Below the pieces are notes generated by a model. That model made no database searches. It was not told the DNA's origin and saw only the letters and a program-made list of their open reading frames with translations. From Candidatus Woesebacteria bacterium (GTDB lineage Bacteria; Patescibacteriota; Microgenomatia; UBA8517), in contig CP055307.1 in assembly GCA_013374835.1 (NCBI GenBank), forward strand, positions 660,768-724,767: a stretch of DNA of 64,000 nt. The letters run 5' to 3'. Positions within the stretch are counted from its first letter, which is position 1. Every line of letters begins with the position of its first letter. Position numbers and translations under genes: made by a program. Shown here piece by piece: positions 4,601 to 63,013 of this stretch.

Positions 4601-5177
4601 TTCTGCAAAGCCACTGAACGAACTTATAGATAAACTTTTACCTTATAGATCTCATAGAATTGATGAAATGAATGATTTGGAATTAATCGGCAAGAACGAC
4701 AATGGAATTGTTAGGATTGCCTGTGTTGTTTCGGAGATAAGAGTAGTGACTACAAGACGAACAGGCGCAAAAATGGCGTTTGTTAAGGTTACGGACGAAA
4801 CAGGCTCAATGGAAGCTGTTGTTTTCCCAAAAATATTTAAAGAAACTGAAAATGTTTGGTTTGAACTTAACGCTGTATTGATTACCGGAAAAATAGATGT
4901 CCGCGACGATGGAACTTTTATTTTAGTTAATAAAGTTGATACAAATGAAACTATAAAATCCAAAAAGGGTAGCGTTAATATAACTATACCAAACAGTGCT
5001 ACCAAAGAGATTCTGCTTGCTCTTAAAAATGTATTTAAGGAAAATCCCGGGAACAATAAAGTAAGCCTATATTTTGAAAAAAACGGAAAAACCTATGATT
5101 TGCCTTACGAAATTGAGTGGAATATTGAAATTTCTAAAAAAATTTCCCAAATACTTAATACAAATAAACTTCCATGA
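1668..5177 (+). CDS. dnaE: DNA polymerase III alpha subunit
   Basis: PHP domain HLHVHTEYSLLDG at N-terminus; 1169 aa; polymerase core motifs; OB-fold C-terminus; TGA stop. Confidence 0.9.
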   Translation: MMDRGKFVHLHVHTEYSLLDGLSKIKELIAHIKEQGMDSVAITDHGVMYGAIEFYKAAINEGIKPIIGMEGYISNIDHKLRIERSKMKNWHITLLAKNNDGYKNLMKLTSIAHLEGFYYKPRFDFETLAKYSKGLICLSGCGASELADSLHTNDYKKAKLIVDKYVNVFGDDYYLEIQRHEYAKFAKKATTAEIKRDLLEQAELESLRNEGIIKLSREYGIPLVASNDAHYINREDAFAQDALVCIATGKNISDVKRLRLVDSPSYHLANYDEMQRLFYDLPGSIENTVKIAKKCDVEISIGKFFFPKVEVPTGKSAKDYLKEEALAGLKKRYKKIEKVHIDRLTYELSIIEEKGYSPYFLIYYDMARWARERHVPINVRGSVAGSITTYALGITTVDPIRFNLPFERFLNPYRPSAPDIDLDIADDMRDEILSYLVKKYGKDKVAQICTFGRMLARGSVRDTARVLGYPYDTGDKIAKLIPMGSQGFPMTIKRALEENPELSDLYKSDNDAKRIIDLARQIEGNARHISVHAAGVVISPKKLTDFAPLQLEPSGENIITQYEMRSCEDIGLVKLDVLGIRNLSILRESVFLVKETTGKIVDLTKIPLNDKKTFEMLARGETMGVFQLSGSGMTRYLVELEPEKIEDIMMMIALFRPGPMENIDEYIARKKGTKPVTYYHPKMEKFLDKSLGVLVYQDDLLYTALELAGYNWEEVDKFRKAVGKKIPEEMAKQHVRFVKGCMENSGMTKKEAEGLWDLFEPFQGYGFNKAHSASYGILAYQTAYMKANYPVEYMTALLTAESNDKDKISSAINECRRMGIRVLPPDINESQVGFIIVNDAKSLNGKAIRFGLSAIKNVGEAAINSILEARKEGNFTSFSDFLRRVDGRKVNKRVLESLIKVGAMKEFGNRASLLSSIDDLRAKIKSNSKDSRQQDLFSVGELNDDNPLESMAQSITNIPEFSEEELKGLEKQLLGFSLSAKPLNELIDKLLPYRSHRIDEMNDLELIGKNDNGIVRIACVVSEIRVVTTRRTGAKMAFVKVTDETGSMEAVVFPKIFKETENVWFELNAVLITGKIDVRDDGTFILVNKVDTNETIKSKKGSVNITIPNSATKEILLALKNVFKENPGNNKVSLYFEKNGKTYDLPYEIEWNIEISKKISQILNTNKLP

Positions 5178-5244
5178 GCTTACGCTTACACAATAAAAGT
5201 GAGGCTTGAACAGATAGATACTTTTAGTTTAAAATATCAGAATT

Positions 5245-5595
5245 ATGGCATTAACTGTGAAACACAAAGATACAACTTTTGGGGTCGGAGATGTGGTCCT
5301 TGTACACAAGAGACTTGAAGAGGAAGGCAAAAAAATCCGTACGCAAATATTTGAAGGAGTAGTGATAGCTATTAAAAATAGAGGCAACGGAAAAAGTTTT
5401 ACCGTTCGAAGAATTGGGGCTCAAAATATCGGCATAGAGCAGATTTTTCCATTAGAGTCCACCCTTATTGAAAAAATAGAAGTGAAACAGCATGGCTTAA
5501 AGGGTGTTCGGCGTGCAAAACTTTACTATATTAGAGATAAAAGCAAAAAAGAAATAGACAGGATTTACTCAAGAGCATCGCGAAAATCTTCATAA
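5245..5595 (+). CDS. rplS: 50S ribosomal protein L19
   Basis: GDVVLVHKRLEEEGKKIRTQIFEGVVIAIKNRGNGKSFTVRRI...RRAKLYYIRD matches the L19 family pattern; 116 aa. Confidence 0.85.
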   Translation: MALTVKHKDTTFGVGDVVLVHKRLEEEGKKIRTQIFEGVVIAIKNRGNGKSFTVRRIGAQNIGIEQIFPLESTLIEKIEVKQHGLKGVRRAKLYYIRDKSKKEIDRIYSRASRKSS

Positions 5596-5606
5596 TTTAA
5601 ATTAAC

Positions 5607-5615
5607 TGTTATAAT
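5607..5615 (+). promoter_or_regulatory. extended -10 element TGTTATAAT upstream of ruvC
   Basis: Perfect TGnTATAAT 11 nt before the ruvC ATG; implies a very short or leaderless 5' UTR. Confidence 0.3.
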
Positions 5616-5625
5616 TTATAAAGCA

Positions 5626-6132
5626 ATGATAGTATTGGGAATTGATCCTGGCACGGCTACTACCGGCTACGGACTTATTAAAATTAATGGTAACAGACAA
5701 ATGGAGCTTATTAGGTATGGGCTTGTTGAGACAAAAAAAATTGAATCTGCGGCGTCGAGATTGGAAATAATACATAACGAATTAAGTAAAATTTTGTCTT
5801 TGCATAAACCGAATATTATCGCTATTGAAAAACTTTTTTTTGCAAATAATGCTAAAACTGCTATTCGAGTAGGACAAGCTCAAGGAGTTATGCTTTTATC
5901 TGCGGCTAATCATAAAATTCCTGTTTATGAGTATTCACCCATGACAATAAAAAAGGTAATTACGGGCGATGGGCATGCCAGTAAACTGATTGTACAAAAA
6001 TACGTGAGAAAGATGCTTGGCTCCAGGGTAAGAAAGAAAAAAGGCGACAAAACGCATTTTGACAATGCGGCTGATGCATTGGCTGTTGCCATATGTCATG
6101 TTTACAAAGTTGATTTATTGGAATCGAGGTGA
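5626..6132 (+). CDS. ruvC: Holliday junction resolvase RuvC
   Basis: MIVLGIDPGTATTGYGLI start and C-terminal DNAADALAVAICH catalytic-Asp motif; 168 aa; TGA stop at 6130-6132. Confidence 0.85.
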   Translation: MIVLGIDPGTATTGYGLIKINGNRQMELIRYGLVETKKIESAASRLEIIHNELSKILSLHKPNIIAIEKLFFANNAKTAIRVGQAQGVMLLSAANHKIPVYEYSPMTIKKVITGDGHASKLIVQKYVRKMLGSRVRKKKGDKTHFDNAADALAVAICHVYKVDLLESR

Positions 6133-40982: not shown

Positions 40983-42524
40983 ATGAAATACATAGCCTAT
41001 TGCAGAAAATCAACAGATGAGAAGGAGAAACAAATTCTCTCCATTGATCAGCAAATCTATGAGTTAAAGCAGTTTGCGCAGAGAGAAAACTTGGAGATAG
41101 TTGAATTTTTGACAGAGGCGCAAACTGCCAAAGTTCCTGGACGGAAAGTATTTTCAAACTTTATTAGCCTAGTTGAAAAAGGTGTTGCACAAGGAATTAT
41201 TGCTTGGCACCCCGACAGACTTGCCAGGAACTCGATAGGTGGTGGAAAAATTATTTATCTTCTCGATGAAGGAAAACTTCAATCTCTAAAATTTCCCACT
41301 TTCTGGTTTGAAAATACTCCCCAGGGCAGATTTATGCTTAATATCGCTTTTGGCCAAGCTAAGTATTATGTTGATAATCTAAGTGAGAATGTAAAACGAG
41401 GTTTATACCACAAATTAAGACATGGTGGCTGGCCATCGCTTGCCCCTATCGGCTACTTAAATGACAGAAACTTGCGTTCTGTCATTGTTCACCCCAAAGA
41501 GGGAAAGTTGGTAAAACTTGCTTTTCTGAAATTCTCCTCCGGCGAATTTAGCAGTATGAAAGATATTCAAACTTTCTTTTTCAAAAACAAGTTGTTTAAA
41601 GCTGGCGAAAAACCCATGCACTACAATCAAATTCGTGCAATTCTCACAAACAGCTTTTATTATGGCCTCATGCTTTACCATGGCGAAACGTATGAGGGTA
41701 GTCACAAGCCTTTAATTAGCAAAAAGACTTTTGACAAAGCTCAAGAAATTTTGGAGAAAAAGTACAGCAAGAAACCCCACAAGCACGAATTTGATTTCAC
41801 TGGTTTTATTACGTGCAAAGAATGCGGTTCGTTTGTAACTGCCGAGACACACAAAAAGTTCTATCGAAAAACGAACCGCAATGCTACCTATATTTACTAC
41901 CGCTGTGTCAAGAAAAAGGGAATTTGTTCGCAAAAGTACCTTCGTGAAGAAAAAGTTGAAAAACAGCTCAGAGAAATTGTGGAGAGTGTTTCTTTAAATG
42001 AAAAATGGCAAGCCAAAATGCTTGAACTTTTGGCGAAAGATGAGATTAAAGAAAAGGAAACAATTAAAAGTGAGCTTCGCTCACTCACAGTTTCTCTGGA
42101 AGCTGTCGAGGAAAAACTAGACAAACTACTTGAAGGCTACTTAGAAGAAATAGTTGACACCGAAGATTATCAAGCTAAGAAAAAAGATTTTCTCGACAAA
42201 AAGAAAGTTTTGAAAGAGAAAATATCAGAAGTTAAGCAAAAAGGAAGTGCTTGGCTCGAACCGATGAGAGAATTCATCAATGAGGCCGCAGAAGCGGCCA
42301 AAATCGCGCGCAAAAAAAATAATTGCGATGAACTTTCAGTCATCGCAAAAAAAGTCGGCTCGAACTTCTATATGATGAATAAACGGATTTATTTTGAGCC
42401 CTGCGCACCGCATATTGCGCTCGCCGCGCGGCCTGTCGCGGCTCGCGCATACCCCACCGCTACCATTTTGTGCCGAGGGTGGGACTCGAACCCACACGTC
42501 CGATTATCGAACACAGGATTTTAA
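40983..42524 (+). CDS. large serine recombinase (resolvase catalytic domain, recombinase domain, Zn-ribbon, coiled-coil)
   Basis: N-terminal YCRKSTDEKEKQILSIDQQ (catalytic Ser), AWHPDRLARN, recombinase domain, CKECGSFVTAETHKKFYRK...YYRCVKKKGICS zinc ribbon, long coiled-coil; the ORF as drawn reads through repeat B and into tRNA-Leu, so the true C-terminus is probably upstream of ~42400. Confidence 0.8.
   Translation: MKYIAYCRKSTDEKEKQILSIDQQIYELKQFAQRENLEIVEFLTEAQTAKVPGRKVFSNFISLVEKGVAQGIIAWHPDRLARNSIGGGKIIYLLDEGKLQSLKFPTFWFENTPQGRFMLNIAFGQAKYYVDNLSENVKRGLYHKLRHGGWPSLAPIGYLNDRNLRSVIVHPKEGKLVKLAFLKFSSGEFSSMKDIQTFFFKNKLFKAGEKPMHYNQIRAILTNSFYYGLMLYHGETYEGSHKPLISKKTFDKAQEILEKKYSKKPHKHEFDFTGFITCKECGSFVTAETHKKFYRKTNRNATYIYYRCVKKKGICSQKYLREEKVEKQLREIVESVSLNEKWQAKMLELLAKDEIKEKETIKSELRSLTVSLEAVEEKLDKLLEGYLEEIVDTEDYQAKKKDFLDKKKVLKEKISEVKQKGSAWLEPMREFINEAAEAAKIARKKNNCDELSVIAKKVGSNFYMMNKRIYFEPCAPHIALAARPVAARAYPTATILCRGWDSNPHVRLSNTGF
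42385..42470 (-). repeat. GC-rich imperfect-palindrome repeat, copy B (inverted), directly abutting the 3' end of tRNA-Leu(TAA)
   Basis: Reverse complement of 42406-42450 matches copy C core with 2 mismatches over 45 nt. Confidence 0.75.
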
Positions 42525-42556
42525 GTCCTGAGCGTCTACCATTCCGCCACCTCGGC
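42471..42556 (-). tRNA. tRNA-Leu (anticodon TAA), long variable arm
   Basis: Reverse complement GCCGAGGTGGCGGAATGGTAGACGCTCAGGACTTAAAATCCTGTGTTCGATAATCGGACGTGTGGGTTCGAGTCCCACCCTCGGCA; class II cloverleaf. Confidence 0.85.
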
Positions 42557-47701: not shown

Positions 47702-47787
47702 GCCCTCATGGCGGAATTGGCAGACGCGCAGCGTTCAGGACGCTGTTCCCGTTAATGGGAGTAGAGGTTCAACTCCTCTTGAGGGCA
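47702..47787 (+). tRNA. tRNA-Leu (anticodon CAG)
   Basis: GCCCTCATGGCGGAATTGGCAGACGCGCAGCGTTCAGGACGCTG...GGTTCAACTCCTCTTGAGGGCA, class II. Confidence 0.85.
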
Positions 47788-47815
47788 CTGATTTGATAAA
47801 ATATAATTAGTTTGA

Positions 47816-47897
47816 GCCGAGGTGTTGGAACTGGTAGACAAGCACGCTTGAGGTGCGTGTGGGGAAACCCGTGCAGGTTCAAGTCCTGTCCTCGGCA
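47816..47897 (+). tRNA. tRNA-Leu (anticodon GAG)
   Basis: GCCGAGGTGTTGGAACTGGTAGACAAGCACGCTTGAGGTGCGTG...GGTTCAAGTCCTGTCCTCGGCA, class II. Confidence 0.85.
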
Positions 47898-47904
47898 CAG
47901 AAAA

Positions 47905-47990
47905 GGAGCGATTGGGTGTGCGCGAGCCGCGACAGGCCGCGCGGCGAGCGCATCATGCGGTGCAATCGGGAAAAATTCAATTCGTTTATT
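47905..47990 (+). repeat. GC-rich imperfect-palindrome repeat, copy C, directly 3' of tRNA-Leu(GAG)
   Basis: GCGATTGGGTGTGCGCGAGCCGCGACAGGCCGCGCGGCGAGCGCATCATGCGGTGCAATCGGGAAAAATTCAATTCGTTTATT; matches copies A and B. Confidence 0.75.
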
Positions 47991-48094
47991 TTCCAATAAG
48001 TAGTTCGAGCTGGCCCTTATCCCAAGCCAGATTTGTTATTCAATAAAAGTTTTGATTCGGTTGTTTCGGATGTTTGTGATAAAATAGATGATAC

Positions 48095-48168
48095 GGTCGG
48101 TTAGCTCAGTTGGCTAGAGCATTCGGCTTACATCCGAAAGGTCATAGGTTCGAGTCCTATACCGACCA
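48095..48168 (+). tRNA. tRNA-Val (anticodon TAC)
   Basis: GGTCGGTTAGCTCAGTTGGCTAGAGCATTCGGCTTACATCCGAAAGGTCATAGGTTCGAGTCCTATACCGACCA. Confidence 0.85.
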
Positions 48169-48177
48169 CTCATACGC

Positions 48178-48250
48178 GCTGGGATAGCCAAGTTGGTCAC
48201 GGCGGGCGCCTGAAGAGCGTCAGATGTGTGTTCGATTCACACTCCCAGCA
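48178..48250 (+). tRNA. tRNA-Phe (anticodon GAA)
   Basis: GCTGGGATAGCCAAGTTGGTCACGGCGGGCGCCTGAAGAGCGTCAGATGTGTGTTCGATTCACACTCCCAGCA. Confidence 0.8.
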
Positions 48251-48267
48251 CAAATTTTAAAATGTTG

Positions 48268-48404
48268 AGAATGGCTTCTTAGCAAAAAGAACTCAAAAAA
48301 GTAAGTTTCAATAAAAAAAATTTGCTATAATTATTAAGTACTTGCGGGTATAGTTGAAAGGTCCAACGACTCCCTTCCAAGGAGTAAATCGGGGTTCGAT
48401 TCCC
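48268..48404 (+). repeat. 137-bp direct repeat, left copy: tRNA-Gly(TCC) upstream region with TGCTATAAT extended -10, plus tRNA 5' portion through the T-loop
   Basis: ~135/137 identical to 51848-51984 (offset exactly 3580 bp). Confidence 0.85.
48344..48404 (+). pseudogene. truncated tRNA-Gly(TCC): 5' end to T-loop only, 3' T-stem and acceptor strand replaced
   Basis: Identical to the intact tRNA-Gly at 51924-51984, then diverges (TCACTGGGTACCATGG) and cannot close the acceptor stem. Confidence 0.75.
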
Positions 48405-48420
48405 TCACTGGGTACCATGG

Positions 48421-48490
48421 CCCGTGCTCAGTGGCTAGAGTGCTTCGTTTATATCGAAGAAGTCGTAGGTTCAAATTTTATCACCTTCAC
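48421..48490 (+). pseudogene. tRNA-like fragment: canonical acceptor 5' strand, D-arm and anticodon arm (loop TTTATAT, anticodon TAT), but no pairing 3' acceptor strand
   Basis: GGCCCGTGCTCAGTGGCTAGAGTGCTTCGTTTATATCGAAG...; the 3' part does not pair with the 5' acceptor strand. Confidence 0.4.
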
Positions 48491-51847: not shown

Positions 51848-51984
51848 AGAATGGCTTCTTAGCAAAAAGAACTCAAAAAAATAAGTTTCAATAAAGAAAA
51901 TTTGCTATAATTATTAAGTACTTGCGGGTATAGTTGAAAGGTCCAACGACTCCCTTCCAAGGAGTAAATCGGGGTTCGATTCCC
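51848..51984 (+). repeat. 137-bp direct repeat, right copy (leads into the intact tRNA-Gly)
   Basis: See left copy. Confidence 0.85.
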
Positions 51985-51993
51985 CGTACCCGC
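51924..51993 (+). tRNA. tRNA-Gly (anticodon TCC), intact
   Basis: GCGGGTATAGTTGAAAGGTCCAACGACTCCCTTCCAAGGAGTAAATCGGGGTTCGATTCCCCGTACCCGCT; all stems close. Confidence 0.85.
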
Positions 51994-52102
51994 TCCCAAA
52001 GTGGAAATCTATCTATAAATTGTTAGCCTAGCTAGATAGTATTGAAAAATCGCTCAAAGATAAATTTTCAAAAAATGGTGTTATGATGATAAAAAAGAGT
52101 TT

Positions 52103-54376
52103 TTGTGTTTGATGGGAAAAATAACCCTTAAAATTTTATTTGTTTCTCTCTTAATTTCCTCTTGGCTTTTTGCTGGATGGCCGAGAATTTGGCAAAAGCC
52201 ACCAATTCCACCGGCTATTCGTAAAGCTAAGGCAGCGCAGGTAACGATTGATAATTCGATACACACCACTTCTACAAGTCACCTCGATAGTTCACCATCT
52301 ACAGTGTTTATTTCAGAAACTAATGGTTATACTTTTTATCGCGATAGCGGAGGTCAATGTGTTTACAGCAAAACCACAAATGGCGGGACAAGCTGGGGAA
52401 CAGCAGTGACTGTTGATTCTCAGACTGACTGTTTGCAAATTGCTGTCTGGTATGATCGCTGGACACCGGGGGATAATACTGGAACGTTAATCCATTTTGT
52501 GACTTTTGATTCTGGTGATGATGATATTTGGTATGGCTATTTAGATATCTCAAACAATGACTCACTTGCAACTCCAATTAATATCACATCTGGATTAGGT
52601 TATTCGGGCACTCTAGCTGTTGGCACAAACCACACTACCATCACCAAAGGCACGGACGGCGTGCTCTATGCGGCTGTGTCGGATGCTAATGGTACGGGCA
52701 ATATAATGGCCCGTTGTAGCTCAACCTGCACCACAGCAACCAACTGGGCAGTGTCTCAACCAGCATCATGGACTGCTGGTAATGACTATTTAATCTTGGT
52801 ACCTATGCTCTCTGACAAAATAATGCTTCTCTGGTGGGATATTTCATTAGGATCAAATGATATTAAATATTCTATCTGGGATGGTTCTTCTTGGTCGACT
52901 TTTGCTGCCATTGATACAGCTTTAGATAATGCTATTTATGACGCATCATGGGGTGCTGCGATTGACCCATCAACTGGAGATGTGTATTTGGCTTACGCTG
53001 CAAACGCGACTACTTTAGGAACGGACGACAGTATTCGGGTAAAAAAATACACGAGTAGCTGGTCATCCTTGACCGATGTAGTAACCAATAGCGCCTGTGC
53101 CGGCGTTTCAAACTGCGGCATTACCGGAGTTAAAATAGCGATGGACACGACGAGCGGCGACTTGTATGTCCTTTATTCGGCACAGTCAACTCCTGGCACC
53201 GCCACAACTGCTAATGTCTATTTCAAAAAATCAACCGACGGCGGCTCAACCTGGAGTTCAGAATTGGGTCCGGTCTATTCCACAAACGACGATATTTACG
53301 GCGCGCGCTTGAGCTTGTCCGATTCCGCGGGCATCCAGAGAATTTACGCTACTTGGTACGCGGCAACACCGGACGATTTATTCGGCCGGCCGATTGCGCC
53401 CTTAACGTTCAACCAATCTGCGTATCGGTTTTTTAATAATTCAGACTCAACTGATGTTGGTACACCTTTGGCGGTACAGAACACAGAGGCAACTTTGGGC
53501 TCGACCAACGCGGCGTTTCGCTTGAGGATTCTCTTGCATGTCGGAGTTTCTGACTTGTTTACGAGTGAACAGAGTTTCAAACTCCAATTTGCTCAACAAT
53601 CGGGAACGTGCGACACCGGATTTTCCGGAGAGACCTACGCTGATGTTACGACCTCAACCGTGATTGCCTACAACGACAACGCCACGCCTGATGACGGCGA
53701 CAACTTGACTACGAACACCAACGACCCGACACACGACGTTGATACCATTGTCAATCAAACTTACGAAGAATTAAATAATTTTACCAACTCCGTGGCGGCT
53801 ATTAACTCGGGTCAGGACGGCAAATGGGATTTTTCTCTCAAAGACAATAACGCTCCAGCCGAAACCACTTATTGTTTGCGGGTGGTCAAATCCGACGGCA
53901 CGGTTCTGGATACTTACACCGTAATTCCGCAAGTTACCACCGCTAGTTCGGCAACAATTTCTGTTTCTGTTTCCGATGGAAACGTTGCTTATGGGATTAT
54001 TCCTAAGGACACCTCAAAAACTACTCTTGCTTCTGATATGCCACCTTCAGGGGATATGCAAACGGTTAGTTATGATACCAATGTAACGGTTAATATCAAC
54101 ATTAAGGGTAGCGACGCTTCGGGTGGGGGTTGTACTTGGGTATTGGCGGGTACCAATGGTAACGATCAATATGTTCATCAATTTTGCAACGCCACCGATA
54201 ATAATTGTTCAAGTCCGCCAACAAATTATACCGCTTTAACAAGCGGTTATCAGACATTAAAAAGCGGAGTTTCTGGTCAGGGAACAGTGGATTTCCATTT
54301 GCGAATAACTATGCCCACCGAATCAAGTTGTTATGGCGAACAATCAATTAATGTGACTATTCAAGCAGCTCAATAA
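52103..54376 (+). CDS. large secreted BNR/Asp-box repeat (sialidase-like beta-propeller) protein with a C-terminal WxL-like domain
   Basis: N-terminal signal/TM; multiple SxDxGxTW Asp-box motifs (TTNGGTSWG, STDGGSTWS); C-terminal ~150 aa homologous to ORF 55580-56125; 757 aa; middle third markedly GC-rich. Confidence 0.6.
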   Translation: MCLMGKITLKILFVSLLISSWLFAGWPRIWQKPPIPPAIRKAKAAQVTIDNSIHTTSTSHLDSSPSTVFISETNGYTFYRDSGGQCVYSKTTNGGTSWGTAVTVDSQTDCLQIAVWYDRWTPGDNTGTLIHFVTFDSGDDDIWYGYLDISNNDSLATPINITSGLGYSGTLAVGTNHTTITKGTDGVLYAAVSDANGTGNIMARCSSTCTTATNWAVSQPASWTAGNDYLILVPMLSDKIMLLWWDISLGSNDIKYSIWDGSSWSTFAAIDTALDNAIYDASWGAAIDPSTGDVYLAYAANATTLGTDDSIRVKKYTSSWSSLTDVVTNSACAGVSNCGITGVKIAMDTTSGDLYVLYSAQSTPGTATTANVYFKKSTDGGSTWSSELGPVYSTNDDIYGARLSLSDSAGIQRIYATWYAATPDDLFGRPIAPLTFNQSAYRFFNNSDSTDVGTPLAVQNTEATLGSTNAAFRLRILLHVGVSDLFTSEQSFKLQFAQQSGTCDTGFSGETYADVTTSTVIAYNDNATPDDGDNLTTNTNDPTHDVDTIVNQTYEELNNFTNSVAAINSGQDGKWDFSLKDNNAPAETTYCLRVVKSDGTVLDTYTVIPQVTTASSATISVSVSDGNVAYGIIPKDTSKTTLASDMPPSGDMQTVSYDTNVTVNINIKGSDASGGGCTWVLAGTNGNDQYVHQFCNATDNNCSSPPTNYTALTSGYQTLKSGVSGQGTVDFHLRITMPTESSCYGEQSINVTIQAAQ

Positions 54377-54389
54377 ATTTTTTATGACT

Positions 54390-55504
54390 TGACATGCACA
54401 GGATCAGATACATATTCGACATTGAGTAAGCATGGCAAGATCCACTGGGGTAAGCATGAAATCTGAGTTTGTAATGGGTAAAATCAAGAATTCCAAGGAG
54501 GTGATGAACTTGATTTCCCATCTGAGAAGATTTGATCAAAGTGAGGTGGCCCAGGAAAGACTAAGAATAATTAAGTATTATGCCAAACATGGAGAGGTTG
54601 CCACAAAAGAGGCCTTTGGAGTAGATCGCAAGCTTATCTTCACCTGGAAGAAAAGAGTACTAGAGAGAAAGAGTATCCAGGGGTTAGTTCCAGACTCCAC
54701 AGCTCCAAGGGGGGTAAGAAGGTCAGTAGTGGATCCTAAAATTGTTGATTATATTAAATCCCAAAGAGAGTTTGTCCCCAGAATGAGCAAGAAGAAGCTT
54801 AAACCCTTACTTGATGCATACTGCAGAGAAAATAATCTCCTAACAGTATCAGAGGCTACCATTGGGAGGATTATCTCAAGAAACAATCTATTTTATTACA
54901 AAACAGGCAGAGTATACCACAATCCAGCCTCTAAATGGGCTCAAAACAAGACTAAGAGCAAGAAGAACAGAATTAAATATGCACCCAAACCAGAAACTCT
55001 GGGATACATCCAAGCTGATACTGTGGAGAAAATCATTGATGGCATTAGGTGGTATATGTACCAGGCAATTGATGTGAAGGGAAAGTCTGCCCTTTCCCTG
55101 ACCTACAAACACTTAAATTCAGTTAACACTGTGGACTTCTTCAAGAAATTCCAAACACTTATTCCCTACAAAATCCACACAGTCCAGACTGACAATGGTA
55201 AAGAGTTTCTCAAACAATTCAGGGTTTACCTAGAAAAACAAAACATCAAACACATTTTTATATACCCCAGAATGTCCAAGATCCAGGGGGTGGTAGAGCG
55301 CTTCAACAGGACCATCCAGGAAGATTTTATTGACCCCAACCTCCACCTTATCTACAACCAGAAAGCTTACAATCAACGTCTTGCAAAGTACCTGATATAC
55401 TACAACTGCCAGAGAGTACATGAATCCCTAGGTAATATGACACCAACAGACTATCTCATCCAGGAAGGAGGTATGTCGAATATGTTACGATCCTGTACAT
55501 GACA
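54390..55504 (+). mobile_element. insertion sequence (~1.1 kb) with single DDE transposase and 32-33-bp imperfect terminal inverted repeats; IS481/IS30-like
   Basis: IRL TGACATGCACAGGATCAGATACATATTCGACAT (54390-54422) vs reverse complement of IRR TGTCATGTACAGGATCGTAACATATTCGACAT (55473-55504), ~28/33 matches; possible 4-bp ATGA flanking duplication. Confidence 0.75.
54432..55502 (+). CDS. DDE transposase (rve/integrase-core with N-terminal HTH)
   Basis: D (YIQADTVEK), D (VQTDNGKEF), E (ERFNRTIQEDF) triad; C-terminal YNCQRVHESLGNMTP; 356 aa. Confidence 0.8.
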   Translation: MARSTGVSMKSEFVMGKIKNSKEVMNLISHLRRFDQSEVAQERLRIIKYYAKHGEVATKEAFGVDRKLIFTWKKRVLERKSIQGLVPDSTAPRGVRRSVVDPKIVDYIKSQREFVPRMSKKKLKPLLDAYCRENNLLTVSEATIGRIISRNNLFYYKTGRVYHNPASKWAQNKTKSKKNRIKYAPKPETLGYIQADTVEKIIDGIRWYMYQAIDVKGKSALSLTYKHLNSVNTVDFFKKFQTLIPYKIHTVQTDNGKEFLKQFRVYLEKQNIKHIFIYPRMSKIQGVVERFNRTIQEDFIDPNLHLIYNQKAYNQRLAKYLIYYNCQRVHESLGNMTPTDYLIQEGGMSNMLRSCT

Positions 55505-55579
55505 ATGAAAAAAATATTTTAGTAAAGTTAAAAATAGCTAATATGAATAAAAATATGGATACCAAGGAAGCAAAATATT

Positions 55580-56125
55580 TTGAGAGGGGGTGAAGATGTG
55601 TTTAAAAGAATTTTAATATCTTTTGCTTTGATGATTCTTTTGGGTGGTAATTTTTGGTTTGAAGTAATGGCAGCTGACACCGGCGATGTGACGGCAACGG
55701 TAACAGTACAAAATGTAGCAATTACAGTTTCCGACGGTGCCATTGCCTATGGCACTTTAGCTGCTGGAGGAACCAGAAGTACATTACCAAGCGAGGCTAA
55801 TGACATGCAAGTTGCCACCAATACCGGTAATGTTCAAGAGGATTTTAACATTAAAGGATATAACGTTTCTTCTGGCTGTAGTTGGACACTTGGCGCAACC
55901 CAAGACTCTGAACAGTATTTTCATAAATTTTGTAATGATACGGCCAATGATTGTTCAACACCACCAACTAATTATAATGCCTTAACTACAAATTACCAAA
56001 CTCTAAGTTCAGCTGTACCGACTAGTGGTGCTAGAGATTTTCAATTACAGATTGGTGTTCCATCTTCAACTTCTTGTACATCTGAAGCAACCATAACAGT
56101 TACAGTTCAAGCTGTTGCTAGTTAA
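55580..56125 (+). CDS. secreted protein consisting of a WxL-like beta-sandwich domain (paralog of the BNR protein C-terminus)
   Basis: Signal peptide; ~40% identity to 54000-54376 translation (VSDG.IAYG ... NIKG...GCSWTL ... DQY.H.FCN.T.N.CS.PPTNY.ALT..YQTL); 181 aa. Confidence 0.5.
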   Translation: MRGGEDVFKRILISFALMILLGGNFWFEVMAADTGDVTATVTVQNVAITVSDGAIAYGTLAAGGTRSTLPSEANDMQVATNTGNVQEDFNIKGYNVSSGCSWTLGATQDSEQYFHKFCNDTANDCSTPPTNYNALTTNYQTLSSAVPTSGARDFQLQIGVPSSTSCTSEATITVTVQAVAS

Positions 56126-56165
56126 GATTATTGCCAAGATTTTATATGAGTGATAGAGTTTTATT

Positions 56166-56780
56166 ATGAGAAAGACTTTATTTTTTGTGATTTTTTTAAC
56201 TTTTTTCGTTTTTCCACTTCCGGTTTTTTCCAATCTTGGAGTAGGTGTTGCTACCGGAAAAATTGTGGTTGAAGACAAACTCAGACCAGGGATGATTTAT
56301 AATCTTCCTCCGTTGACAGTATTAAACACAGGCGACGAGGAAGCAGAATATGAGGCGGGTGTGGCTTATCACGAGAAGCAATCAGAACTTCAGCCGAATG
56401 AAAAATGGTTTGATTTTTCTCCAAAAAAATTCTTTCTTAAACCAGGTGAAAGTCAGAAAGTAGAAATCAAATTAAATTTACCAGTTAGAGCTGAACCCGG
56501 CGATTATTTCGCTTATTTGGAGGGTAAACCATTGAAAAAATCAGAATCAGGTAAATCAACAATAGGAATAGCTGCAGCGGCTAAGCTTTACTTTACTGTT
56601 TTACCGGCTAACCCAATTTTGGGAGCTTATTATAAAGCAGTGTCTCTTTGGAAAATTAACCAGCCCTGGTCCGCACGTTTTGCGATAATTATCGGAGTAG
56701 CTATTCTTTATTCCTTACTAAATAGATTCTTAGGATTTCAAATCAGCTTTGGCAAAAAAAAAGAAAAAAAGAATGAATGA
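56166..56780 (+). CDS. cell-surface protein with N-terminal signal peptide, Ig/PapD-like middle and C-terminal TM anchor with basic tail (CscA/DUF916-like architecture)
   Basis: 204 aa; signal; C-terminal TM IIIGVAILYSLL followed by KKKEKKNE. Confidence 0.35.
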   Translation: MRKTLFFVIFLTFFVFPLPVFSNLGVGVATGKIVVEDKLRPGMIYNLPPLTVLNTGDEEAEYEAGVAYHEKQSELQPNEKWFDFSPKKFFLKPGESQKVEIKLNLPVRAEPGDYFAYLEGKPLKKSESGKSTIGIAAAAKLYFTVLPANPILGAYYKAVSLWKINQPWSARFAIIIGVAILYSLLNRFLGFQISFGKKKEKKNE

Positions 56781-57409
56781 AATGGGTAGGATCATTTTTT
56801 TTTATACTTATTCTCGCCTTGCTTTTTAAAGGTTTTACCTTTGTTCAGGGGATTTCTTTTCAAGATTTAGAGGCAACCATTAAAATTAGTGTTTGTGGCG
56901 ACGGAAAAATTGAAGGCGATGAGAATTGCGAGGGAGATAATTTAAATAACCAAACTTGTGAAAGTTTAGGCTATGGTTCTGGTACCTTAACTTGCGATAT
57001 TGCCTGCAGTTTTGATACTTACGGCTGCTTACCCGCTCCAACAACTACTCCTACACCATTTTCTTCTACCCATCAAACTATTCCCCAATCTGACACAACC
57101 ACGTCTAGTTTAATTTCAAGTCTGGCACCAACACCCTTTTTTTATTCTACTCCGAAACGAACCGTCTCCCTTCCGCAGGCAATAATTCCTTTTGACACTA
57201 ATTGTGATAATATAATTGAAATAAGTGAACTTTTTGAAAGCGTCAGAGATTGGGTTGATAGCTGGATAATTAAAACGAGTAAATCAATTATTCGAAGAGA
57301 AACCAGCAAAAAAACAAGATGTGGTTTAATTCAAGATTGTGATTTAAACCGTGATAATGAGTGTAATATAGTCGATTTTTCAATACTTATGTATTACGTA
57401 AAGATATAA
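56777..57409 (+). CDS. secreted Cys-rich protein with Thr/Pro-rich linker and two dockerin-like Ca-binding-type repeats
   Basis: Signal peptide; CGDGKIEGDENCEGD; T/P/S linker; DTNCDNIIEISELFESVRDWV and DCDLNRDNECNIVDFSILMYYV resemble dockerin repeats; 210 aa. Confidence 0.35.
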   Translation: MKWVGSFFFILILALLFKGFTFVQGISFQDLEATIKISVCGDGKIEGDENCEGDNLNNQTCESLGYGSGTLTCDIACSFDTYGCLPAPTTTPTPFSSTHQTIPQSDTTTSSLISSLAPTPFFYSTPKRTVSLPQAIIPFDTNCDNIIEISELFESVRDWVDSWIIKTSKSIIRRETSKKTRCGLIQDCDLNRDNECNIVDFSILMYYVKI

Positions 57410-57410
57410 A

Positions 57411-58403
57411 ATGAAAAAACTCGCTATTTTCACTTTTCTTCTAAAGATTATTGGCTTTATTATTGCCTCTTGGTTTTTGGTTCATATCTTGTCTATTTTT
57501 GGAGTCTTTTTGGCATTAGCTTACCCTCTTTGGTATCTTTTTGGATTTAAGAGAATTCCTTGTTTATGGTGTCAAATTAAAAAGGCGCAATTTTGTACTT
57601 TTTCTCATAGTATTTTCGATTCTGGCTTGATTTTGGTTTTTACTTTGTTTTCTCTTGGCTTAGTTTTTGCTGAAGCAAAAATTATTTTCAAAATGGGTTT
57701 TCCACCAACAGCTAAAACAGTTTCTTTTGTTATTCCCACTAAGGGTCAATACCGATTAGGTGAAATCTTTCCAATGAAGATCGAAATATCTGGGGTTAAA
57801 ACCCCTATTAATGCCGTTCAAGCTGATTTGGGTTTTGACTCTAAAAAAATTCAGATTGTTGACATATCAACCAATGAATCGTTTGCAAATATATTTATTC
57901 AGAAAGAAATCAATAATGAAGTTGGTTATGCCCGATTGACCGGTGGTTTGCCAAATCCTGGTTTTTTTTCAGAACATGGAGTTTTTGGTTCTGTTTTTTT
58001 TAAGGGCATAACACCAGGAATTGTACAAATTAAGTTTCTGCCCTCTTCAATGGTTTTAGCAAATGACGGTCGAGGCAGTAATGTATTAAAGGATTTGGCA
58101 TCTGCTTCTTATTTGATTTTACCTGAAAAATTGTCTCAAGAGGAAGAAGAGATTCAAAAAAGTATTATTTTGAAACCAAATGTTTTGGGGGAAAGTAACG
58201 AAAACACTAAAATGAAGTTTTATGAAGAGAAAGGAGTTTTAGGAACGCAGGTTGTAAAAGACATCGAAAAAGTGAAAAAATTTGACTTAGGTAAAAAAAT
58301 ATTAGAAATTTTGGAAAAAATTGATCGGTTTATTTTATCTTTGTGGGCAAGGTTAACTGGATTAACGTCATCTTTTTTTACTTCGCGTTTCTACCGGGCA
58401 TAA
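57411..58403 (+). CDS. membrane protein with cohesin-like extracellular domain
   Basis: Three N-terminal TM helices, then VSFVIPTKGQYRLGEIFPMKIEISGVKTPINAVQADLGFDSKKIQIVDIS...GVFGSVFFKGITPGIVQIKF, a cohesin-like pattern; 330 aa. Confidence 0.35.
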   Translation: MKKLAIFTFLLKIIGFIIASWFLVHILSIFGVFLALAYPLWYLFGFKRIPCLWCQIKKAQFCTFSHSIFDSGLILVFTLFSLGLVFAEAKIIFKMGFPPTAKTVSFVIPTKGQYRLGEIFPMKIEISGVKTPINAVQADLGFDSKKIQIVDISTNESFANIFIQKEINNEVGYARLTGGLPNPGFFSEHGVFGSVFFKGITPGIVQIKFLPSSMVLANDGRGSNVLKDLASASYLILPEKLSQEEEEIQKSIILKPNVLGESNENTKMKFYEEKGVLGTQVVKDIEKVKKFDLGKKILEILEKIDRFILSLWARLTGLTSSFFTSRFYRA

Positions 58404-58516: not shown

Positions 58517-58591
58517 GCCCCGTTAGTTCAACGGATAGAACAAATCCCTTCTAAGGATTAGATGGGGGTTCGATTCCCTCACGGGGCACCA
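58517..58591 (+). tRNA. tRNA-Arg (anticodon TCT), CCA encoded
   Basis: GCCCCGTTAGTTCAACGGATAGAACAAATCCCTTCTAAGGATTAGATGGGGGTTCGATTCCCTCACGGGGCACCA. Confidence 0.85.
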
Positions 58592-58667
58592 GGGCCCGTA
58601 GCTCAGTGGCCAGAGCAGTCGGCTCTTAACCGAATGGTCGGAGGTTCGAATCCTCCCGGGCTCACCA
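58592..58667 (+). tRNA. tRNA-Lys (anticodon CTT), CCA encoded; starts directly after the CCA of tRNA-Arg
   Basis: GGGCCCGTAGCTCAGTGGCCAGAGCAGTCGGCTCTTAACCGAATGGTCGGAGGTTCGAATCCTCCCGGGCTCACCA. Confidence 0.8.
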
Positions 58668-59307: not shown

Positions 59308-62160
59308 ATGATAGACAATAACGAACAACTAGGTTTCTCTGAACAAGAAGTATTAAAAGAAAAGGCTTTAAAACTTTCTTCAAAATATACAGAGGTCATT
59401 AAGCGGATAACCGATACATCGGTTTACAAAGACGAAAATACTGGGCATTTCAGATTAACAACCGATGGTAGGCAAAATGCACACGAAATCTTTGATGACT
59501 TTTTTAAGCAGGCAGGTGGAAATCACCAACTTCTAAGACTAGCGGTGGACAGTGCTTATAAAACAGTTAAGTCTGATATTCAACAAAGCAGAGAAGAAGA
59601 AAAGCTTGATGAGCGTGGGTGGGCGTTATTAAGAACCGTACAAAGCATACAAGGAGTGAATACTTGGCAGGAAGCAAATGAAGTTTACTCAAGGATGGTT
59701 GGTCAAGCCGCCAAAGAGCAGGGCCTTTCCGCCGCTCGGCTATATCAAAAAGCAAAGGAAATAAGAGAACGACTTGAATCTGAGGGTATATCGGTTGATG
59801 AATATTTAAGAAAAGATAAAGAAAAATTTGATAATGTTCTCATAACCGAAACTGAAAAACTTGATAACGAAACAGTAACACTGCTAGGCAAAGCAAGAAA
59901 AAAGTTAGAGGAATTTAAACAAAAAGTTAGCGGTTGGCTTCCCAAAAAGCAGAAAGACAGACAACCCCAGATAGAAACCCGTGATATTACTCCAGAGGAA
60001 GAAGTTCCAGCTTTGCTTAGAAAAAAAATGACTCGCAGGCAATTCTTGAAATTTGCGGGGGCAACGGGAGCAGTAATTGTGCTGGAGCCTATCATTAGGG
60101 TGGGATTAGACCCTGAATTTCAAGCGGGACTTAGAGCTGCTTCTACCCGCCCTGAAATGCCAGGTAGTGGAGAGAGACACGAGGTTTCCTTGTCAACTTT
60201 ACTTGAAGTTTACAGAAAACATTTTAAGGGAAGGGAACATTTGCTCCCAGAAAGGGTTTGGGTAAGGACAGAAGGAGAAGGTGCAGATGAAAAACTAAGA
60301 GGGACAGGCACGCATCTTGGCATTCTTGCCAACCAATATTACGAGTCTGAAAAAAGAGGGGGGGAAGATTTTGACACCTACTACAAACGCTTCGTAGACA
60401 GCTTTCACGATTTGTCAGATACTGCTGGGCTTGACTTCATCACCCTAGTAACCAGTTTGCAAATTAGTGCTGAAAATATTGCTGGTTATGAAGAGCCCAA
60501 AGGCCCATCGAATATTGATGTTAATGTATCTCGTATTCAAGAAGTGGGAATAACTGCTGCACGAGCACTGGGACTAGAGTCTGCTATGGTTGAATCATTA
60601 GGTATAGGTGGACTTGCGTCTCAAATTAGAAACGAAGCTGAAAGGAGGGGTATTACAACGCCTCTGGAGGGTGCTATACCTAAGGAAGGCATAAGGCATT
60701 ACGATTTAATAAGATTAAGAGAACAGCCAACCACGGGTTTAATGGACTTCGAGCCAGGTGGTCGTGCAGAGGCTTTTATTTCGTTCCAAAACAATCCTTT
60801 AAGCGAAATGCTACGAAGAGAATATCCTCAAGTTTGCGAAAAATACGATAGAGCACACGAAAGGCGTGAGGAAGTTTCAGCAATAAGGGGAGAAATGGAG
60901 TCAGCTGCAAACGACTTTATTGAAAGACACGAAGACACTCTTAGACCATTTGCGGAAGGAAATGAAGAGGCTCTTAATGCAATCGGAATTTCACCCAATA
61001 TGGATTTGTGGCAACTAATAAACTATACAGATGTTTGGTATAAGGTCTCTGAAATACCAACTAACCCTGAATTTGCCTACCAACGAACAGTTGAATATAT
61101 AAAAAAAGAAGCGACTAAAGACCCACGAGCTTTCTATAAAAGATTATTTTCTCAGCAAATTAGAAATCCAAGATTTCTAAACTATTTAATGGATCACTCA
61201 ATCTCAAACAACGACCAAGAAGAAGGCTCGGCTGTATCCAATATCCAAAACCTTGTAACAGAATACGAGCAGAAGGCAAAGAATTTAAGGATTGCCCATC
61301 TTAATATTTTAGAAGCAGAAGGAAGGTTTGAATACGACAGCAGATTTCAACAAGCAACAAGTGTTTTAGTAACCAAAAAACTCTCTGATACAGCGGGAAA
61401 GTTTAACCCAAACAGCAGAGACAGCCTTGGCTGGCATATCTATAAAACTTGTGCAGCCAGAGAAATAGCCCCTATCCCCTTTTTGGTAGACGAACAGCCA
61501 TTCGCTTGCGACATAACAATTGACCCACCTTATGCACCAGAGGCAACCATAGAATCATTAGATACTTTTGCAAGGATGTTACAAGAAGCTGGGATACTTG
61601 AAACAGCTCCAGACAGAAATATAAATGCGTTCTATAGCACTATGGAGAAAATGTTCTGGCGAGATGGGGGTGTGTGGTTTGGAGCAGAACCCACAGAAGA
61701 AGAACAAACAAAATGGAAAAAAATATTAAACCACTTTAATGAAAAGTTGGCTAACCGTTTATTTTATGACTTTGCAGGACTACTTCACGATGAGCAAAAA
61801 ATGAGTGAGTTAAATAAAATAATGATGAACAAAGGACTTATTTCCGAACCCGCCAATAAAGACCCTTATAATTTTTTCACCCAGTTTGTTTATTTAGCAT
61901 TAAATAGTAGACATATGCGCCGAAATATTTCAGATGCTGATTGGAATGAAGCAGAGAGGTATTTTCAAGATAATATAATGCCCATGGTCATTACCAGAGA
62001 AGAAGTTTCACCTGGGGTTTTTAGGGAAAAATGGAACATAGGCTCTGCTGACTATCCTCCAATATTCCGTTCACAAGCAGTAATGTATAATTTCCTTATT
62101 GACCAAAACCCAGAATCACCATCATCAACACCATCAAGTGAGGTGCTAGGACACCATTAG
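59308..62160 (+). CDS. large hypothetical protein (ORFan) with internal Tat-like motif and TM helix
   Basis: 950 aa; residues ~243-265 MTRRQFLKFAGATGAVIVLEP resemble a Tat signal but are internal; no catalytic motif; GC content visibly above local background. Confidence 0.45.
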   Translation: MIDNNEQLGFSEQEVLKEKALKLSSKYTEVIKRITDTSVYKDENTGHFRLTTDGRQNAHEIFDDFFKQAGGNHQLLRLAVDSAYKTVKSDIQQSREEEKLDERGWALLRTVQSIQGVNTWQEANEVYSRMVGQAAKEQGLSAARLYQKAKEIRERLESEGISVDEYLRKDKEKFDNVLITETEKLDNETVTLLGKARKKLEEFKQKVSGWLPKKQKDRQPQIETRDITPEEEVPALLRKKMTRRQFLKFAGATGAVIVLEPIIRVGLDPEFQAGLRAASTRPEMPGSGERHEVSLSTLLEVYRKHFKGREHLLPERVWVRTEGEGADEKLRGTGTHLGILANQYYESEKRGGEDFDTYYKRFVDSFHDLSDTAGLDFITLVTSLQISAENIAGYEEPKGPSNIDVNVSRIQEVGITAARALGLESAMVESLGIGGLASQIRNEAERRGITTPLEGAIPKEGIRHYDLIRLREQPTTGLMDFEPGGRAEAFISFQNNPLSEMLRREYPQVCEKYDRAHERREEVSAIRGEMESAANDFIERHEDTLRPFAEGNEEALNAIGISPNMDLWQLINYTDVWYKVSEIPTNPEFAYQRTVEYIKKEATKDPRAFYKRLFSQQIRNPRFLNYLMDHSISNNDQEEGSAVSNIQNLVTEYEQKAKNLRIAHLNILEAEGRFEYDSRFQQATSVLVTKKLSDTAGKFNPNSRDSLGWHIYKTCAAREIAPIPFLVDEQPFACDITIDPPYAPEATIESLDTFARMLQEAGILETAPDRNINAFYSTMEKMFWRDGGVWFGAEPTEEEQTKWKKILNHFNEKLANRLFYDFAGLLHDEQKMSELNKIMMNKGLISEPANKDPYNFFTQFVYLALNSRHMRRNISDADWNEAERYFQDNIMPMVITREEVSPGVFREKWNIGSADYPPIFRSQAVMYNFLIDQNPESPSSTPSSEVLGHH

Positions 62161-62941: not shown

Positions 62942-63013
62942 GGGCCCATAGCTTAATAGTAGAACAACACCCTCTTAATGTGATGGTCGGAGGTTCGAAT
63001 CCTCCCGGGCTCA
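62942..63013 (+). pseudogene. tRNA-Lys-like degenerate copy: divergent 5' half (weak D and anticodon stems, acceptor mismatch) but 3' half identical to tRNA-Lys; right boundary of islet
   Basis: GGGCCCATAGCTTAATAGTAGAACAACACCCTCTTAATGTG + ATGGTCGGAGGTTCGAATCCTCCCGGGCTCAC; the 32-nt stretch 62983-63014 is identical to 58634-58665. Confidence 0.6.

Follow-up and report, generated by a model that had tools for sequence, protein, structure and literature searches.

A sharply bounded, GC3-rich segment, probably acquired by recombination, in a modular surface-protein gene of a Patescibacteria bacterium

A surface-protein gene of a Candidatus Woesebacteria bacterium, a member of the Patescibacteria, appears to have received its center from another lineage. 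The gene lies in the 64,000-nucleotide (nt) stretch of DNA analyzed here, hereafter the window (GenBank assembly GCA_013374835.1, contig CP055307.1, positions 660,768 to 724,767 of the forward strand; coordinates below count from the first letter of this stretch). Its product is a modular protein of 757 amino acids (aa), predicted to be anchored by a transmembrane (TM) helix. Over a central segment of 900 nt, its silent sites depart from those of the rest of the gene and of the other genes in the window. The reading that we favor, with a probability of about 0.65, is that this segment was recombined into the gene from a GC-richer relative. An acquired or recombined segment is the best explanation because the gene is a mosaic at silent sites, because homologs lack the tract at the corresponding position, and because the phylogenetic affinity of the tract, in its first half, differs from that of the N-terminal part.

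The compositional change is sharply bounded and occurs at synonymous sites. In a two-change-point likelihood scan, GC content at third codon positions (GC3) is 0.56 within the tract and 0.33 in the rest of the gene, with a log-likelihood ratio (LLR) of 19.4 compared to a maximum of 11.4 in 200 permutations. The support intervals of the two ends span codons 286–330 and 575–620, and segmentation by a two-state hidden Markov model (HMM) returns the same tract. Along the gene, GC at first (GC1) and second (GC2) codon positions ranges over 0.38–0.48 and 0.35–0.63, respectively, neither being stepped, whereas GC3 rises from ~0.30 to 0.53–0.63 from codons ~300 to ~600. At four-fold degenerate sites, C and G reach 0.36 and 0.25 in the tract against a background of 0.16 and 0.14; at two-fold sites, C/(C+T) is 0.57 versus 0.28; and the observed/expected (o/e) ratio of CpG is 1.44 versus 0.79. 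The main gain is in C-ending codons, with C at third positions (C3) amounting to 0.35 compared to 0.14. By the four-fold, two-fold, and CpG measures alike, the flanks of the gene are indistinguishable from background, and the center carries a foreign codon and dinucleotide signature. Elsewhere in the window, 100-codon windows of the other 52 open reading frames (ORFs) have a GC3 of 0.31 ± 0.055, values like those of the tract being attained only by the transposase of the adjacent insertion sequence (IS), and the only other ORFs above 0.40 encode this transposase and a large serine recombinase (40983–42524). Since both are mobile-element genes, this supports reading high GC3 in this genome as a sign of acquired DNA.

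In total GC, the window averages 0.373 and its 1-kb bin 53001–54000, at 0.488, is the highest of 64, the runner-up standing at 0.44. The first-pass annotation of this DNA had placed a GC-rich center at ~52950–53950, the 41-mer it quoted mapping to 53300–53340; the GC3 step and the four-fold and CpG shifts bear this out, with the boundaries given in Table 1. The companion statement that both ends of the gene look like host DNA holds only at synonymous sites, where four-fold usage equals the background. Total GC is raised gene-wide, ends included (0.40–0.45), because GC2 is high (0.50 gene-wide versus ~0.34 in other genes), reflecting richness in Thr, Ser, Ala, and Gly. As a cause of the tract itself, GC driven by amino acid content was rejected: GC1 and GC2 are flat, and amino acid composition is near-equal in the three segments of the gene.

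The possibility that the family as such is biased here, entertained in the first-pass annotation as one that would dissolve the mosaic, was likewise rejected on comparison of ~160 related loci (numbered L here) from species genomes and metagenomes. The GC3 of the central domain follows the background of each homolog's own genome, and homologs in AT-rich genomes lack the tract at that position, with paired GC3 values of 0.25/0.29 at L007, 0.22/0.23 at L010, 0.14/0.21 at L047, and 0.27/0.25 at L166. Nor is the tract an assembly artifact, as far as tested: four Logan contigs (L001–L004), each assembled independently from a different sequencing run, match the window exactly along their whole length and pass unbroken across both tract junctions.

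The segments of the gene also differ in their nearest relatives (proteins numbered P), as judged from neighbor-joining (NJ) trees with 300 bootstrap replicates and from a sliding identity comparison. In the N-terminal part, aa 45–200 are nearest to P0009, P0011, and P0007, and aa 45–306 to P0009 and P0011; grouping with P0004, P0005, and P0006 occurs in 0/300 and 2/300 replicates, respectively. Within the first half of the tract, aa 321–460 group with these same three proteins in 249/300 replicates (83%), and aa 361–460 are 88–95% identical to them, 0.12–0.15 above other clade members. The C-terminal domain D (aa 620–757) has its nearest relatives in P0002 and L085, at 82–87% identity (77–87% aa for the whole segment 53921–54373); P0002 is the most distant relative in the N-terminal part (58%) yet is near in domain D. 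Synonymous-codon identity to L005 and L006 shows a greater excess in the tract than it does in the N-terminal part. Because nearest relatives and synonymous-codon identity differ by segment, the gene is probably composed of three or more pieces of different ancestry, and of these the central one alone is still foreign in composition. Just inside both junctions lie nucleotide blocks that are conserved family-wide at 0.72–0.84 identity (53078–53140 and 53813–53900), where crossovers may plausibly have taken place; the 3′ junction also falls where domain C meets domain D. A second, small GC3-rich patch farther upstream (Table 1) is marginal, being called at an HMM stay value of 0.98 but not at 0.99, and lies where similarity to the P0004/P0005/P0006 clade rises to parity.

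The history most in keeping with these data would run as follows. A diverged allele from a GC-richer relative would have supplied its homologous segment in place of codons 307–606. The exchange probably followed DNA uptake and proceeded by homologous or homeologous recombination, the crossovers falling within or close to the conserved blocks. The 5′ part and domain D would have kept, or would already have gained, host codon usage, while the imported patch would have remained unameliorated to the synonymous usage of the AT-rich host. It is this lack of amelioration that makes the patch appear younger than its flanks. The direction of transfer would then be into the center, and diversification of a surface protein may be the selective reason.

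A donor was sought among 5.8 billion proteins (with the whole protein and with the tract alone), in GTDB species genomes, in JGI metagenomes, in IMG/VR, and in PLSDB by blastn. In the whole-protein search of the 5.8 billion proteins, the best matches to the tract reached 81% aa identity (84% for aa 291–450) and ~76% nt identity; across all of these searches, identity stayed at or below 84% aa and 79% nt. The tract alone found nothing closer in the protein database, the JGI metagenomes yielded nothing closer, no relative was found in IMG/VR, and PLSDB gave no match. The separate search with the center that the first-pass annotation had suggested for finding the donor lineage thus revealed none, and of its proposal of a recently recombined or acquired segment, the acquisition is upheld by the silent-site mosaic, the homologs without the tract, and the affinity of aa 321–460, while the word "recently" is not. 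Because no donor was found, the source and date of the tract cannot be shown, and the sole argument for a recent import is the absence of amelioration.

The want of a donor is one of several points that weigh against import from a GC-richer relative. The second half of the tract, aa 461–606, has no specific affinity (4/300 replicates), such that phylogenetic support spans only some half of it. The tree building was by NJ with a simple distance correction on 140–300 columns, and the sampled members of the nearest clade have only a moderate GC3 of 0.38–0.48 in the tract segment. Furthermore, conservation across the family is highest in the center, and some of the high identity there reflects constraint. 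The four assemblies that reproduce the junctions may derive from related samples.

Among the alternatives, the one that survives best, though we regard it as unlikely, is a recombination hotspot with GC-biased gene conversion, whereby repeated exchange between alleles or paralogs raises silent-site GC locally and a GC-rich donor is unneeded. The family at large offers it some encouragement. Propeller family genes average 0.063 more GC3 than their own flanking ORFs (p = 3e-6 versus control ORFs) and are patchier, with an LLR above 12 in 24% of them compared to 6% of controls of similar length, the controls being crude, as they consist of stop-to-stop ORFs from loci of mixed quality. The patches fall at differing positions across members (codons 81–397 in L093, codons ~60–330 in L094, the N-terminal half of L167; L090 is also patched), have a GC3 of 0.55–0.75 against genome backgrounds of 0.28–0.37 (L093 1751–4372, L094 491–5086, L167 58–2733, L090 1353–3650), and depart nearly always toward GC. 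This family pattern fits two readings: frequent exchange between lineages across differences in GC, or recombination-associated GC-biased conversion. For the present gene, the latter is hard to reconcile with the shift in CpG o/e and in the whole codon signature, which goes beyond GC alone, and with flanks that have exactly host composition though they too are mosaic in ancestry. In a few relatives (e.g., L088, L080), moreover, the patch has a lower GC3 than the remainder of its gene, and the window contains no second copy of the propeller or of domain C, hence no local conversion partner; only domain D has a paralog there, at 46% identity.

Less probable again is the import of the whole gene from a GC-richer donor, followed by overwriting of its 5′ and 3′ parts with host-like or AT-rich alleles, so that the center is a remnant. 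The different affinities of domain D (P0002/L085) and the N-terminal part (P0009/P0011) demand at least two exchanges in any scenario, and whole-gene GC3 lies above that of the own genome in many close relatives (L005, L165, L090). Such a course, however, takes two replacements instead of one, and domain D and the downstream operon genes share both their nearest locus, L166, and host-like composition, which fits vertical descent of the 3′ part with the operon.

Selection on silent sites within the tract, for translation, messenger RNA structure, or an embedded element, is very improbable and largely refuted. The gain in C-ending codons is in a direction often taken by translational selection, but four-fold G and CpG rise as well, only part of one gene is affected, and homologs in AT-rich genomes lack the effect. 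A structured RNA or antisense element in the tract was rejected, there being no Rfam match in the gene, a tract folding z-score of 0.19, and no long antisense ORF. An equally remote prospect is an assembly chimera in which reads of a GC-richer co-occurring relative merged via the conserved middle of the gene: the genome is metagenome-derived and conservation in this family, which is widespread in Patescibacteria, peaks in the tract, but two switches at the same sites every time would be needed to yield the identical, unbranched, junction-crossing contigs of the four runs, which break only in tRNA-Gly and at the IS ends.

Table 1. Features of the surface-protein gene and its surroundings (window coordinates)
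Feature	Positions	Strand	Basis
tRNA-Gly(TCC)	51924–51996	+	Upstream of gene
Gene for 757-aa surface protein	52103–54376	+	ORF listing
Possible second small GC3-rich patch, tentative (codons 174–217, GC3 0.61)	52622–52753	+	Looser HMM only
GC3-rich tract, putative imported segment (codons 307–606)	53021–53920	+	Two-change-point scan, HMM, four-fold sites
Domain D segment, host-like GC3 0.30	53921–54373	+	Segment comparison, change-point scan
IS481-family-like insertion sequence	54385–55510	+	IS481 model, Pfam, inverted repeats
Four downstream operon genes (g181, g204, g210, g330)	55580–58403	+	GC3, domain matches
tRNA-Arg(TCT) and tRNA-Lys(CTT)	58517–58667	+	Downstream of operon

The protein whose gene would have received the segment is best explained, on the strength of its predicted structure, as a membrane-anchored extracellular protein of a Patescibacteria bacterium, encoded by the first gene of a five-gene surface operon. 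Its database version, P0001, starts at an ATG at 52112 and has 754 aa, matching the 757-aa ORF protein at 100%. An AlphaFold2 model built with 43 family members as input (pLDDT 87.9, pTM 0.76) consists of an N-terminal helix that would serve as TM anchor or signal peptide, a β-propeller (aa ~44–442), and two β-sandwiches, domain C (aa ~451–606) and domain D (aa ~611–757). The GC3-rich tract covers the last propeller blades and all of domain C. The propeller fold is assigned from the model together with Foldseek matches to sialidases, GH145/PL25 enzymes, and propeller lectins. By E-value, the best of these matches are to the three-domain sialidase of Micromonospora viridifaciens (2.9e-15 to 5.5e-12) and to integrin α ectodomains, whereas the propeller taken as a single domain superposes best on seven-bladed PHL/PLL lectins, with a target-normalized TM-score (TMt) of 0.70–0.73. 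A search of the PDB with the family sequence profile gave no meaningful match.

The likeness to the M. viridifaciens enzyme (PDB 1eut, 1w8o, 2bzd), in which a propeller is followed by an Ig-like linker and a carbohydrate-binding module, lies in the shared order of a propeller and then two β-sandwiches and in the one canonical Asp-box. In contrast, sequence identity is a mere 11–12%, the protein contains no FRIP/RIP motif ([FY]RIP or xRIP), and its BNR_2 score is below the gathering cut-off (23.9 bits versus 31.4), as is that of BNR_4 (15.8 versus 27.3), although precomputed PF13088 matches are present in several homologs. The earlier label of a BNR/Asp-box repeat protein is therefore only loosely apt, although the fold is a sialidase- or lectin-like propeller: against the pattern S-x-D-x-G-x-T-W there is one canonical Asp-box, STDGGSTW at aa 377, and one degenerate copy, TTNGGTSW at aa 91. 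"BNR-like propeller surface protein" would be a fair name. A catalytic sialidase (GH33) identity is not supported by the sequence, and judging from the model, binding is at least as likely a role for the propeller as catalysis.

Homologs come nearly all from metagenome-assembled genomes of Patescibacteria, also known as the Candidate Phyla Radiation (CPR), including Parcubacteria, Paceibacterota, Veblenbacteria, Kaiserbacteria, and others. The protein is built of modules, of which domain C recurs in many other architectures and domain D in few relatives only. Domain C (53453–53920) is strongly conserved, with 23 invariant columns in 43 sequences, and has no Pfam family. Across Patescibacteria it is joined to FN3, peptidase C25, dockerin, and other domains (P0058, P0063, P0046, P0086, P0103, and others), and it also occurs in tandem paralogs, with four copies in L032.

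Downstream of the gene, at about 10 nt past its stop codon and between it and the rest of the operon, lies an insertion sequence that the first-pass annotation did not mention. Its transposase ORF (54432–55502) encodes a 356-aa DDE transposase with a GC3 of 0.47, and it is bounded by imperfect terminal inverted repeats of ~38 nt (~54385–54422 and 55473–55510); no clear target-site duplication was found. The transposase matches the NCBIfam IS481 model (NF033577) at E = 3.8e-44 and 151 bits, below the cut-off of 224, and matches rve, rve_3, and HTH_32 in Pfam. Its own GC3 is patchy, with 0.53 in codons 198–356 versus 0.39. The IS is present in a single copy in the window and absent from the syntenic locus L166. 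All four Logan contigs start at 51955, within tRNA-Gly; three end in the left inverted repeat of the IS (54394–54424) and one at its right end (55499), which suggests that the assembly graph branches at the tRNA and at the IS, the latter being multicopy or polymorphic.

Beyond the IS, the four remaining genes have a host-like GC3 of 0.24–0.28. The first, g181 (ORF 55580–56125), combines a signal peptide with a D-like domain and is the 46%-identical paralog of domain D mentioned above; g204 is Ig-like with a C-terminal TM helix; g210 is Cys-rich with a dockerin-like C-terminus (DLNRDNECNIVDFSIL); and g330 is polytopic and bears a cohesin-like domain. Because these four genes recur in unchanged order, and with no IS, behind family genes in L166 (at 2800–5640), L065, L008, L164, L126, L013, L088, and L005, the locus is most simply read from the sequences as a conserved five-gene surface operon into which the IS has inserted. 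The IS may be polar on the four downstream genes. Its predicted domains suggest that the operon encodes a complex for surface display, with a cohesin–dockerin pair as the link.

The placement of the gene in a tRNA-bounded accessory region, between tRNA-Gly and tRNA-Arg, did not withstand scrutiny, and a tRNA-bounded genomic island was rejected. No att-like repeat and no downstream duplicate of the tRNA-Gly 3′ end was found, the direct repeat D1 being no more than the similarity between tRNA-Gly and tRNA-Arg; no integrase was found between the tRNAs; the downstream genes have host-like GC3; and the cluster is conserved in relatives, some of which have tRNAs of varying identity near the operon at chance density. 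tRNAs are dense throughout the window, with 12–15 in 64 kb. Three Rfam tRNA matches went unreported by ARAGORN, namely 48344–48413 (33.5 bits), 48426–48481 (31.3 bits), and 62942–63013 (46.5 bits); the first two extend the tRNA cluster at 47702–48251. The large serine recombinase, with Resolvase, Recombinase, and Zn_ribbon_recom domains, has a GC3 of 0.41 (windows up to 0.53), and its 3′ end overlaps tRNA-Leu(TAA) (42470–42556), which is encoded on the other strand; the recombinase gene is possibly what is left of an integrated element. Elsewhere, a 950-aa ORF (59308–62160) has a motif resembling a twin-arginine translocation (TAT) signal in mid-protein (aa 240–258), not at the N-terminus, and GC is locally raised to 0.44 in the bin 60001–61000 in its region.

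Intragenic mosaics in surface-protein genes are well known in cultivated bacteria, which makes the present single-gene case solid and unsurprising. Mosaic genes have arisen by interspecies homologous recombination in pbp2x, pbp2b, and penA of Streptococcus and Neisseria and in tbpB, porB, and opa of Neisseria. As in these, a bounded internal block here differs in composition and ancestry, frame and fold are kept, and the product is a surface or envelope protein. Unlike in these, no donor was found and divergence from every sampled relative is at least 16–19% in aa; the host is an uncultivated Patescibacteria bacterium, and the block is recognized mainly by GC3 rather than by a step in strain divergence. 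A second parallel is the modular shuffling of phage tail fibers and fibrillar adhesins, which share with this family the independent combination of modules, here domains C and D in many architectures, and nearest relatives that are segment-specific; the present gene, by contrast, belongs to a chromosomal operon of a cellular organism and has no phage relative in IMG/VR. The literature on recombination in BNR or surface proteins of CPR yielded nothing specific to this family.

Patescibacteria are mostly episymbionts, and their host attachment and surface-protein evolution are poorly known. One might conceive, tentatively, of the five-gene operon as a Patescibacteria-specific host-attachment apparatus whose exposed propeller and β-sandwich modules are continually re-assorted between distant CPR lineages by segmental recombination, aided by natural DNA uptake, with the patches here and in L093, L094, and L167 as footprints of an exchange network. 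If true, this network would be comparable to the mosaicism of phage tail fibers. Of more interest than the single gene are the conserved operon and the patchiness that recurs across the family. More immediately, the gene described here would mean that a surface-protein gene in the CPR can acquire part of a gene of very different composition, and the family data suggest that this has happened repeatedly.

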